49,834 nucleotides of DNA from Escherichia phage UP30, in sequence record OX638287; one strand, given 5' to 3'. This document shows, in pieces, positions 46,200 to 49,834 of this stretch (within the stretch, counting starts at the first letter, position 1; each line of letters opens with the position of its first letter). The translations under genes and the position numbers were made by a program. The notes beneath the pieces were generated by a model, which searched no databases, had not been told where the DNA came from, and saw only the letters and a list, made by a program, of their open reading frames with translations.

Positions 46200-46256
46200 A
46201 GGCCACTTTATCAAATGACCTTACGGCAATATTAACAAATCGTGCTATTTACCAGG
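46200..46256 (-). promoter_or_regulatory. promoter module (minus strand)
   Basis: Minus-sense tagcacgatttgttaat; aaggtcatTTGATAAAGTggcctt. Confidence 0.5.
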
Positions 46257-46458
46257 GAATATAATCTTCGTCGTCCTCATGAGTATCATCACCAGGTAAC
46301 TCAAAATTGGGATCGTATTCGCTTTCGGCATCCATATCCATATTTCCCAAAGCCTCGTCAAGCGTAATTTCTTTATATGCAACCTTGATACACCATTCAG
46401 CACCAAGCCCGGCATCAAGAGCGGCAAAATAACGAGTCCAGAAATTATCCTGTTCCAT
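46249..46458 (-). CDS. small acidic protein (69 aa) with SSB-tail-like C-terminus DEDYIPW
   Basis: ATG 46458 after GGAG; many Asp/Glu; stop embedded in box. Confidence 0.5.
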   Translation of the reverse strand: MEQDNFWTRYFAALDAGLGAEWCIKVAYKEITLDEALGNMDMDAESEYDPNFELPGDDTHEDDEDYIPW

Positions 46459-46462
46459 TAAA

Positions 46463-46687
46463 TTAACTCCATGAATTAATGTAAATTGAGTTAGCCTCAA
46501 GCGTTGCGCGGACGTCGGCATCTGTTGCATTTACTAAGCGCGAGCCTGGCGTGCTGCCAATAACGTTATTACCGTTGCGAGTTTTAGTTACCGTCATTGA
46601 AATAAAACCGGAAGACTTATCCATTTTAATAACTACACGACCTTTAGCGTTCAGGTGCTTGATGATATTCTCAACTTTAATGCTCAT
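46463..46687 (-). CDS. hypothetical protein (74 aa)
   Basis: ATG 46687 after promoter module and AAAGGA RBS. Confidence 0.5.
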   Translation of the reverse strand: MSIKVENIIKHLNAKGRVVIKMDKSSGFISMTVTKTRNGNNVIGSTPGSRLVNATDADVRATLEANSIYINSWS

Positions 46688-47831: not shown

Positions 47832-47880
47832 GGGATGACTATACCAGCCATCCCGGATGCGCGTTTAGCAATTCGTGCTA
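47832..47880 (-). promoter_or_regulatory. promoter module (minus strand)
   Basis: Minus-sense tagcacgaattgctaaac; gggatggcTGGTATAGTcatccc. Confidence 0.55.
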
Positions 47881-48216
47881 TTAAGCAATATCGAACTCAG
47901 CGGCATATGCTTCCTTGAAGCCAGCTTCACGCATGGTGCGCTTGCTGATTTTGCGCTGGAATTTGTACTGGCTGTTAGGCATAACCCACCAGAAGCAGGC
48001 AGTTTCACGAACGATTTCATATTTACCGTAACGGGTGAAGGTGTCGCGTTCCATATCCGGCTGATTTACACAGGTCAGGAATTTAGCTGCCTTGTCTTCA
48101 GTTTTGATTTCTTCCCACACGAAGGAATCCATACCGTTAACCTTGCAAGCTACCATGATGTACTCAACGCCGTTTTCGATTTTGATGATTTCGTTACCGC
48201 GATTTTCGTATTTCAT
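47881..48216 (-). CDS. hypothetical protein (111 aa)
   Basis: ORF after promoter module; stop overlaps next box. Confidence 0.55.
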   Translation of the reverse strand: MKYENRGNEIIKIENGVEYIMVACKVNGMDSFVWEEIKTEDKAAKFLTCVNQPDMERDTFTRYGKYEIVRETACFWWVMPNSQYKFQRKISKRTMREAGFKEAYAAEFDIA

Positions 48217-48249
48217 TTTCCTGTTCCTGATGTGTATCTCGTTTCGATG

Positions 48250-48298
48250 AGGTAATTATGCCAAATCACACCGATCGAGTTTTAACAAAAAGTGCTAT
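48250..48298 (-). promoter_or_regulatory. promoter module (minus strand)
   Basis: Minus-sense tagcactttttgttaaaac; ggtgtgatttgGCATAATtacctc. Confidence 0.5.
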
Positions 48299-48986
48299 TT
48301 GCGATCGCTTTGAAAAATCCCCTGGGTGATAGCGATCGTATCAGCTTGGTCTTTGCAGACTTGCCGCCCAGCTTGTTCTGCTGCGCAGAGTACCCGTCAG
48401 GCAGATTTACTGGTTTTCTCTCCGGCATGACAAAGTCATCCGAGGTCCACAGGCACGTCTTCTTCGGGTAAGCATCGCGCGGCGCAATATACATCGGGAA
48501 CCAGGGGTGTACGTCATTCTCCGGTAGATAGCCGCCATACTCCCAGGGGTCGAAAGTGTGGTCAGCTTTACGCCAGGCAGATGAAAGAACGCTCACCGGA
48601 TTCTCAATGATGTAAGTCACGCCCAGGCTATCGCCAATGTTCGCAGCAATCCGGGCGGTGGCAACAGCTTTCTCCTGGAATAGCGGATCACGTTCACGCT
48701 TGCTGGCAAAATGACGAGCGCCGCTAACAGCCAGGTCAGTGCACGGCGGGAATGCCATAATGAAATCCGGCTTGCCATACACACCCGCGATCGCATCTCG
48801 CTCGAACTTCTCACCAATGAAGACGTTCACATACTCAATATTCGGATGCTCCACCCGGGCATTGTGCTTTGCATAATCTCCGTGATCGGCTCCGTCAAAG
48901 TTGAAGCACATCACCTTATAGCCTTGCTTTGCCAGTTCATGACCAGCCAGGCCGGAACCGTCGAATAGTGACCAGATTAATTTCAT
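48282..48986 (-). CDS. DNA (cytosine-5)-methyltransferase-like protein
   Basis: LFDGSG (motif I-like), PPCTDLAVSG (Pro-Cys motif IV-like), IIENPV (ENV-like); ATG 48986. Confidence 0.5.
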   Translation of the reverse strand: MKLIWSLFDGSGLAGHELAKQGYKVMCFNFDGADHGDYAKHNARVEHPNIEYVNVFIGEKFERDAIAGVYGKPDFIMAFPPCTDLAVSGARHFASKRERDPLFQEKAVATARIAANIGDSLGVTYIIENPVSVLSSAWRKADHTFDPWEYGGYLPENDVHPWFPMYIAPRDAYPKKTCLWTSDDFVMPERKPVNLPDGYSAQQNKLGGKSAKTKLIRSLSPRGFFKAIANSTFC

Positions 48987-49022
48987 TTGTTGCATTCTCC
49001 TGATTAACCTTATCGCTTACCC

Positions 49023-49148
49023 TTATCGCTTACCCTGACCGTTGCAAGCCGGACACGTGATTCGCTGCATTGTCCAGACTCCAGTGAATAAAGGAACCAG
49101 GGTAAATCCACGACCAGCGCACTGACTACAAACCTGTTTAACTTTCAT
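49023..49148 (-). CDS. putative small zinc-ribbon protein (41 aa; CSQC...CPAC)
   Basis: ATG 49148 after CCAATCAGAAGAGGAAG leader, in-frame within ORF 49023-49217. Confidence 0.4.
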   Translation of the reverse strand: MKVKQVCSQCAGRGFTLVPLFTGVWTMQRITCPACNGQGKR

Positions 49149-49164
49149 TGCTGCTTCCTCTTCT

Positions 49165-49227
49165 GATTGGTTGATGTGATGAATCATACCCTGCCAACCT
49201 GGTCCAGTCGTTAGCAAAAAATGCTAT
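49165..49227 (-). promoter_or_regulatory. promoter module (minus strand)
   Basis: Minus-sense atagcattttttgctaac; TATGAT; CCAATCAGAAGAGG leader. Confidence 0.45.
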
Positions 49228-49413
49228 TCCAATAATTGCTTATTATTCCATCAATGCTGGAATAGGTGGAATAATTTTGATTCCGATTGATTGCAAATGA
49301 TGAAACATGATTATTGCATGGTGTGCAACAGTTGGTTGATTTATTGCTGAGATTACAATGATTGTGAGAGGGAGGATCTAGTGTTACCCGGTTCGCCTGG
49401 TAGTCATCTCCAT
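49228..49413 (-). ncRNA. candidate non-coding transcript between two minus-oriented dyad boxes
   Basis: No ORF >21 aa on either strand; bracketed by boxes; ATTCC/GGAAT repeat cluster. Confidence 0.2.
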
Positions 49414-49434
49414 TTTTAGCAAAAAGTGCTACCG
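49414..49434 (-). promoter_or_regulatory. dyad box without adjacent ORF
   Basis: Minus-sense tagcactttttgctaaaa; next 190 nt leftward have no ORF >21 aa. Confidence 0.4.
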
Positions 49435-49521
49435 ATTACACTTTAACTTGTCACTGCTGTAATATTTGTCTAGAATCACACTTGTGACAAAATTACGCAC
49501 TGTGACACCTCACAATATACA

Positions 49522-49552
49522 TATAGATATATGTATCTATATAATATATATA
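49522..49552. repeat. AT-rich palindrome TATAGATA-N4-TATCTATA and 18-mer tctatataatatatatag shared with 30596-30613
   Basis: Exact 18-mer at 49535-49552 and 30596-30613. Confidence 0.55.
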
Positions 49553-49834
49553 GTATTTTTTTTATTTATATATATAGATAATTATATTGTAATAATTGTG
49601 TATAGTTGTCTTACATTGTCTAGCGTACTGTTGGCATATTTCTATCTGCATGTTTATATATACAGTACTTTTTTGAGAGCTATATATTTCTATATGGACT
49701 CTAGACAGCTAGACAAATGTTACACGGCTTAAAATCGGCTTGCAGGCATTGACAACTCTACGTCGCGCTGTCACAATGGCAATTGTTGACACGTTATGAC
49801 GCCATTTACACGCAAATAGACAAAGAGGATATAT

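Follow-up and report, generated by a model that had tools for sequence, protein, structure and literature searches.

A predicted compact DNA (cytosine-5) methyltransferase of the Dcm-like PHROG 757 family in Escherichia phage UP30

Introduction

C5 cytosine DNA methyltransferases of the M.HhaI and DNMT type act by a covalent mechanism, in which a catalytic cysteine attacks C6 of the cytosine. The bacterial enzymes M.HhaI and E. coli Dcm/M.EcoRII of Pfam family PF00145 comprise 327 to 472 amino acids (aa) and bear a large recognition domain. The DNA of Escherichia phage UP30 (sequence record OX638287), a stretch of 49,834 nucleotides (nt) that is referred to as the window in the following, encodes on its minus strand a 234-aa protein (48282–48986) that differs from these enzymes in both respects and has the superfamily fold as well as the catalytic Cys and Glu motifs in common with M.HhaI and Dcm/M.EcoRII. 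An earlier note on this DNA, made from the sequence alone, had described the gene as C5-methylase-like and as standing beside a Dam-like methylase gene. In this work, we assess this reading and weigh it against its alternatives.

Experimental precedent for such compact enzymes comes from phage K42, a strain of phage KarlJaspers (Bas06) that is 95.4% identical to it at the genome level, and from its encounter with retron Ec86 (bioRxiv 10.1101/2023.08.16.553469; peer-reviewed version by Wang et al., Cell Rep 2024 43:114857). In that study, four out of four escape mutants of K42 disrupted the 711-bp dcm gene. Loss of this gene led to escape from the retron, and its expression was toxic only in retron-carrying cells. 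In addition, K42 Dcm raised the 5-methylcytosine (5mC) content of the multicopy single-stranded DNA (msDNA) of the retron—as probed by LC-MS (mass spectrometry coupled to liquid chromatography)—and a C82A/E128A/K175A/K176A mutant did not. The product is hence the same as that of M.HhaI and E. coli Dcm/M.EcoRII. In KarlJaspers and K42, the dcm gene is paired with a Dam-like gene just as in the window, and this pairing of a Dam with a C5 enzyme in Drexlerviridae was already published in the BASEL study. The two base-modification enzymes that the earlier note had proposed for the phage are correct and not without precedent.

A compact family of phage cytosine methyltransferases

We read the gene product as an active DNA (cytosine-5) methyltransferase that would depend on S-adenosylmethionine (SAM) and belong to the compact, “Dcm-like” PHROG 757 family. 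Taking together its fold, its motifs, and the activity of a homologue, we assign a probability of roughly 0.85 to this reading. The whole protein (residues 1–231) matches PHROG 757, annotated as “DNA methyltransferase,” with E=5e-83, and homologues were found by tblastn in 1,521 phage records, whose hosts include Escherichia, Klebsiella, Salmonella, Shigella, Campylobacter, Vibrio, and others. The named ones among these matches are mostly annotated as C5 cytosine methylases. The gene with its motifs LFDGSG, PPCTDLAVSG, and IIENPV, as first noticed in the sequence, is hence real and lies far beyond chance, with C82, E128, and P130 being invariant. The family is widespread in Drexlerviridae and further enterobacterial phages.

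A profile of the family, searched against 1.84 billion representative proteins, yielded only 2,002 matches at E≤1e-3, most of them 210 to 260 aa in length. Such a small set of compact matches describes a distinct compact family and no fragment of ordinary C5 methyltransferases. The UP30 protein with its 234 aa forms a single domain in the AlphaFold2 model. At about 210 to 260 aa, the family is about 70 to 120 aa shorter than M.HhaI (327 aa) and M.HaeIII (328 aa) as matched in the Protein Data Bank (PDB).

Three relatives are of particular use for comparison. The orthologue of phage LeonhardEuler (MZ501092), bas13_0055, is annotated as “Dcm-like C5 cytosine methyltransferase,” shows 92.7% aa identity, and sits at the same location at the head of a leftward operon. 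With bas06_0055 of KarlJaspers, a Hanrivervirus as opposed to the Tunavirus affiliation of the window, the UP30 protein aligns along its entire length at 57% identity (E=4e-88; 236 versus 234 aa; gene length 711 bp), such that 43% of the residues differ. AAS23 gp52 of a Pantoea phage is 50% identical. All four residues mutated in the K42 study—C82, E128, K175, and K176—are found at the same positions in the UP30 protein. Together, the invariant catalytic Cys and Glu and the 5mC produced by the K42 homologue support the C5-methylase-like reading of the earlier note.

A further link to DNA methylation is provided by a natural fusion. The 563-aa family member P0264 combines an N-terminal mini C5 module with a D12-class N6-adenine DNA methyltransferase (Pfam E=2.5e-48), and this tie does not rest on the other evidence. 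When the extra regions of nine longer members (299–563 aa) were scanned with Pfam, only D12 Dam and HNH domains were recognized—the latter, an HNH endonuclease domain, in the 348-aa member P0266—and the extra regions of seven of them (299–414 aa) gave no Pfam match.

Two start codons are offered by the open reading frame (ORF) list: the first ATG results in 237 aa (48282–48995), the second in 234 aa. Read directly from the sequence, the Shine–Dalgarno element AGGAG lies 10 nt from the second ATG at 48986 and just 1 nt from the first at 48995. This spacing makes the 234-aa start the likely true one, in agreement with the LeonhardEuler orthologue, which is annotated at 705 bp like the UP30 gene.

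Fold and catalytic residues

The AlphaFold2 model, calculated from 65 relatives, is of high confidence (predicted local distance difference test, pLDDT, 90.7; predicted template modelling score, pTM, 0.89) and displays the strand and helix order of class-I methyltransferases. The earlier note had named the lack of a methyltransferase fold, together with a lack of cytosine modification in the phage DNA, as what would speak against its reading; in the model, the class-I methyltransferase fold is present, and in its C5-methyltransferase version. In a Foldseek search of the PDB, the top 41 matches are all catalytic domains of DNMT3A or DNMT3B (E about 1e-7, template modelling score, TM, about 0.5), and DNA methyltransferases rank above DNMT2 in the fold searches. 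The viral structure database BFVD contains close structural relatives in other phages with TM up to 0.85 and, in addition, other viral mini C5 methyltransferases of about 200 to 250 aa.

On the sequence level, the family was aligned by hhalign to M.HhaI and DNMT3A, whose sequences were checked against the PDB. The hhalign templates are single sequences or of low diversity, the HhaI homologues being all at least 71% identical. Against DNMT3A, the alignment runs across motifs I to IV with E=4e-5 to 1e-4 and pairs SLFDG with SLFDG and PCTDL with PCNDL. Against HhaI and E. coli Dcm, it covers motifs IV to VI only, with E about 0.06 (0.063 for Dcm). DNMT3A and DNMT3B themselves are 14 to 17% identical to the UP30 protein and about 50 residues longer, retain the RxR of motif VIII and have motifs IX and X as distinct elements, function in dimers or tetramers together with partner domains, and recognize CpG. 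Beyond the superfamily level, nothing speaks for a common descent of the phage family with DNMT3A/3B.

Conservation was assessed in an alignment of 52 family members at 29 to 55% identity. Here, C82, E128, P130, P147, Y173, W180, and P188 are invariant, and K175, T177, R139, R217, and S218—also P221 and G223—are conserved to at least 90%. K176 is variable. Motif I is a clean F8-D-G10-S-G12 in the UP30 protein, matching the F-x-G-x-G SAM loop, and is loosened to D-x-[T/S]-G in the family at large. The PPCTDLAVSG segment (residues 80–89) bears P81-C82, with C82 aligning to HhaI C81, and motif VI reads E128-N129-P130-V131 (IIENPV, residues 126–131), that is ENP instead of ENV, with E128 aligning to HhaI E119.

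From the chemistry of M.HhaI and the DNMTs, a catalytic cycle may be proposed: Cys82 would attack C6 of a flipped-out cytosine while Glu128 would protonate N3, and the methyl group would be transferred from SAM to C5, after which β-elimination would free the enzyme.

Toward the C-terminus, the mapping becomes less certain, with hhalign alignments of this third being of low confidence or inconsistent. One C-terminal motif, RSL(S/T)PRGF, is conserved and is paired with RKLHPRE of HhaI motif IX at low confidence; no second conserved motif follows it. In the C5 superfamily, motifs IX and X are separate. For motif VIII, a global hhalign alignment of low confidence places K175, T177, and W180 on R790, R792, and W795 of DNMT3A, with K175 and T177 falling on the two Arg of the R-x-R motif (HhaI R163/R165), and an alignment of this segment only is not significant.

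Several points weigh against an active C5 DNA methyltransferase and have to be set beside this evidence. The Pfam profile PF00145 scores 11.3 bits, below its gathering cutoff of 22 (E=0.22)—of the profile and fold comparisons that the earlier note had put forward, the fold comparison supports the assignment with DNMT3A/3B as top matches, and the Pfam profile gives a weak match. Among 65 close relatives, PF00145 appears at E≤1 in 40, the best at 1.3e-6. No sequence of the PDB was found at E≤1 with a 65-sequence family profile; the PDB sequence search with the single protein gave nothing relevant, and an NCBIfam scan of it gave no meaningful match. BLASTP gives no significant match to E. coli Dcm (E=2.8). 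The catalytic Arg of motif VIII (HhaI R165, DNMT3A R792) tentatively corresponds to the near-invariant Thr177, as the low-confidence alignment suggests, and no target-recognition domain is evident between the motif VIII strand and the C-terminal motif. Evidence for activity comes from the 57%-identical homologue only, where msDNA was analyzed in bulk by LC-MS and the mutant used was a quadruple one. Its CCWGG target was taken over from E. coli Dcm in the retron study and not measured, and the msDNA of dcm+ MG1655 shows low 5mC until the phage enzyme is expressed (bioRxiv 10.1101/2023.08.16.553469), which sits oddly with a Dcm-identical specificity. The BASEL study saw no simple link between these methyltransferase genes and restriction resistance. 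CCWGG is not avoided in the window (99 sites; observed/expected, O/E, 0.95), which is uninformative either way.

Some of these observations would fit a protein that is no DNA methyltransferase at all—an inactive or regulatory protein on the same fold, or a DNMT2-type RNA m5C methyltransferase. The very small size, the Pfam score below threshold, the degenerate motif I of the wider family, and the apparently missing motif VIII Arg point in this direction. Yet the catalytic Cys and Glu are invariant even in distant members, which is unexpected for a pseudo-enzyme, and in vivo formation of 5mC in DNA by the homologue depends on the mutated residues. The ranking of DNA methyltransferases above DNMT2 and the fusion to a Dam-type DNA methyltransferase likewise oppose it. 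We hence consider such a protein highly improbable, and the non-methylating enzyme on the same fold that the earlier note had kept as an option finds no support.

Target sequence

The short length and the lack of an obvious target-recognition domain, as pointed out from the sequence alone, are borne out by the model and the family alignment: only about 35 residues (182–216) lie between the motif VIII strand and the C-terminal motif. Within the family alignment, variability and indels reach their maximum in these residues, and AlphaFold2 gives them just two short helices with somewhat lower pLDDT. With so few residues in this place, recognition must differ from that of E. coli Dcm and is possibly DNMT3-like. 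Since there is no significant similarity to E. coli Dcm, “Dcm-like” is to be taken as a functional label and not as homology in specificity.

A direct measurement of the target sequence of the compact family was not found in the literature searched, and the papers on Druantia and retron Eco2 contain nothing on its specificity. The CCWGG target is a published assumption and uncertain; in the retron study, mutation of the msDNA site was its sole support. The reported resistance of AAS23 DNA to EcoRII and MboI—with host Dcm not excluded—is consistent with it in the case of EcoRII.

A tentative alternative, which we rate as clearly less than even, is that the family represents a minimal DNMT3-like C5 methyltransferase without target-recognition domain, which would be active on DNA but with a specificity other than that of Dcm: a shorter or relaxed motif, or a structure-dependent preference for hairpin or single-stranded DNA, instead of CCWGG. 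Neither E. coli Dcm nor its recognition domain shows similarity to the family, the variable segment is short, and the best structural matches are DNMT3 enzymes, which read 2-bp sites. CmoX, another phage enzyme of the C5 family, reads GC only (PMC12783734). The low 5mC of msDNA in dcm+ MG1655 without the phage enzyme and the origin of the CCWGG assignment in the name of the enzyme fit as well. On the other side, the EcoRII resistance of AAS23, whose gp52 is 50% identical, is what CCWGG methylation predicts, again with host Dcm not excluded, and changing either C of the msDNA CCTGG abolished retron defense (bioRxiv 10.1101/2023.08.16.553469)—mutations that could equally have disturbed the effector contact. 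If true, a non-Dcm specificity would explain why the phage enzyme and not host Dcm modifies msDNA and sets off the retron, and also why carriage of the gene does not predict restriction resistance.

A strong deficit is seen in the window for several palindromic restriction sites: GAATTC (1 versus 9–14 expected), CCWWGG (2 versus about 12), CTAG (20 versus 64), and GGCC (72 versus 112). GATC, at an O/E of 0.78, is not strongly avoided. The lack of strong avoidance of GATC and CCWGG fits methylated sites that need no avoidance, without proving it. An anti-restriction role of the C5 enzyme, as suggested in the earlier note, is plausible but unproven.

Cofactor

CmoX (PDB 8yf3; PMC12783734), a 333-aa enzyme that sits with phage cmoA and cmoY, uses carboxy-SAM (Cx-SAM) only, via Arg350. 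It raises the question whether the compact family might also draw on Cx-SAM, supplied by host CmoA, and produce 5-carboxymethylcytosine besides or instead of 5mC. CmoX is defined by SPPC and an Arg at the position of HhaI Asn304, and its cofactor can be provided by E. coli CmoA (PMC12783734). The compact family has FPPC and the near-invariant Arg217-Ser218 before its last helix, and the retron study monitored 5mC only (bioRxiv 10.1101/2023.08.16.553469). Against this stands that the K42 homologue clearly raised 5mC and hence uses SAM, and that the placement of R217 at the Asn304 position is unsupported: hhalign pairs its motif with motif IX, and segment-only alignments are not significant, such that we do not claim this equivalence. 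DNMT3A, whose C-terminal motif has GRS in the PDB-verified sequence, is a known SAM user, and ordinary C5 methyltransferases often contain PPC. No CmoA or CmoY is annotated in T1 or in the examined parts of LeonhardEuler and KarlJaspers; the window was not scanned gene by gene for them. With a homologue that makes 5mC and a required Arg that cannot be mapped, Cx-SAM use is very unlikely, and SAM-dependent cytosine-5 methylation is retained as the activity to be expected.

Genomic context

The window is collinear with phage T1, and the region is about 90% nt-identical to T1-like Tunavirus phages of the Drexlerviridae (Eco_BIFF, SA30RD, LeonhardEuler, and Sfin phages among them). At the right side, window 49170–49312 corresponds to T1 48694–48836 and window 49314–49689 to T1 2–389. 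With the right end of T1 joined to its left end, the window looks like a whole T1-like genome running into the left-end terminal-repeat region. A very AT-rich stretch with TATATA runs lies at about 49500–49700. The features of the locus are collected in Table 1. The Dam-like gene noticed earlier is real, and its identity to the T1 Dam gene, of which it is the orthologue, lets this part of the finding stand too.

Table 1 Features of the methyltransferase locus and its surroundings in the window.
Feature	Coordinates	Strand	Basis
CDS, 234-aa mini C5 cytosine DNA methyltransferase (predicted)	48282..48986	-	Stop TAA 48282-48284; ORF, PHROG 757, homologues
Shine–Dalgarno AGGAG	48997..49001	-	10 nt 5' of ATG 48986; sequence read
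Motif I LFDGSG (residues 7-12), loop following strand beta-1, predicted to bind SAM	48951..48968	-	Translation; AlphaFold2 strand E3-7
Motif IV FPPCTDLAVSG, residues 79-89, predicted nucleophile Cys82	48720..48752	-	C82 invariance; alignment with HhaI C81 and DNMT3A PCNDL
Motif VI IIENPV, residues 126-131, Glu128	48594..48611	-	E128 and P130 invariant; aligns with HhaI ENV / E119
Motif VIII-like strand YPKKTCLWT, residues 173-181	48444..48470	-	Conservation; AlphaFold2 strand E177-181
Short, variable stretch at the site of a target-recognition domain, residues 182-216	48339..48443	-	Family alignment; AlphaFold2
C-terminal conserved motif RSLSPRGF, residues 217-224, leads into last helix	48315..48338	-	Conservation
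Dam-type N6-adenine methyltransferase, 237 aa	39161..39874	+	92.2% nt identity over 100% length to T1 Dam gene
Accessory block, about 1.3 kb, absent from T1	47846..49169		blastn and tblastn against T1 genome
Promoter-like element TAGCATTTTTTG ... TATGAT (predicted), upstream of zinc-ribbon ORF and methyltransferase gene	49183..49226	-	One of 13 motif copies

The C5 gene belongs to an accessory block that T1 lacks. Besides the methyltransferase gene itself, this block comprises a 111-aa ORF of unknown function (PHROG 29431) and the greater part of a small zinc-ribbon ORF. Neither blastn nor tblastn of the window end revealed a homologue of the methyltransferase in the T1 genome, whose sequence resumes at window 49170. 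At the right end of the genome, a leftward operon has the gene near its promoter-proximal end. E. coli dcm sits by vsr; in contrast, no Vsr-type or cognate restriction gene adjoins the UP30 gene, its neighboring ORFs matching PHROGs of unknown function only.

Just upstream, the zinc-ribbon ORF (49023–49148, minus strand) carries two zinc-finger motifs of the DnaJ type CxxCxGxG, CSQCAGRG and CPACNGQG, and a weak match to PHROG 127 (antiterminator Q-like, 2e-4). It is listed with 64 aa from a TTG start (49023–49217); the likely start is MKVKQV (41 aa), for which the ribosome-binding site GAGGA is present. The TTG and ATG starts of longer versions overlap the promoter-like element. Between its 3' end and the methyltransferase start codon, a perfect 13-bp tandem duplication (CCTTATCGCTTAC twice, 49008–49033) overlaps its stop codon. 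This duplication lies inside a 144-bp segment (48988–49131) that holds most of the ORF and is absent from LeonhardEuler. A role of the ORF as recognition partner of the methyltransferase was considered and rejected: it is found in 4 phage records versus the 1,521 of the methyltransferase, and in KarlJaspers and AAS23, dcm is preceded by ORFs of an unrelated family.

These latter ORFs, directly upstream of the dcm-like genes of KarlJaspers and AAS23 (L003, 12808–13032, and L006, 18241–18483, both minus strand), share the motif (D)ALG(E/D/N)MDM(D/N). The same motif is encoded in the window by the ORF 46249–46530 (minus strand, PHROG 9085), which does not adjoin the dcm-like gene but lies about 1.75 kb downstream of its 3' end. 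The gene order of this operon is hence shuffled between the genera.

A motif dispersed over the window, CAAAAAGTGCTA (extended consensus GTTTTAACAAAAAGTGCTAtt), occurs in 13 copies versus 0.87 expected by chance, with 12-nt cores at 787, 2580, 13570, 15797, 19564, 25773, 36120, 36582, 39091, 45736, 48286, 49215, and 49420. Two copies of this promoter-like element lie upstream of the methyltransferase gene, and one overlaps its last codons. In most intergenic copies, the reverse complement shows TAGCACTTTTTGTTAAAAC, followed after about 19 nt by TGnCATAAT, and points toward downstream genes. Several intergenic sites of T1, LeonhardEuler, and KarlJaspers are matched by the same element of roughly 70 bp. 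The motif resembles a phage promoter that has an extended −10 element. These sites are absent from the calls of a generic sigma-70 scan.

Biological implications

The gene and its family are already annotated and partly characterized; the finding is correct, but it is not new. For annotation, the name phage DNA (cytosine-5) methyltransferase, of the compact type seen in Drexlerviridae, can be given to the product with confidence. The phage carries two DNA methyltransferases.

Given its genomic context, the enzyme is probably made during infection, where it would methylate the replicating phage DNA and, in addition, host DNA and retron msDNA. Progeny DNA might thereby be shielded from restriction enzymes that are blocked by 5mC. 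As a cost, retron Ec86/Eco1 may sense the enzyme, as it was shown to do with the homologue from K42.

Retron Ec86/Eco1 is present in E. coli B/BL21. From the reading as an active DNA (cytosine-5) methyltransferase, it is predicted that the virion DNA of UP30 has 5mC even when it comes from dcm-negative hosts, that the phage should be sensed by this retron, and that it may face type IV restriction of the kind that depends on 5mC. The scientific value lies hence less in this copy of the gene than in the family—in its specificity and its minimal architecture.

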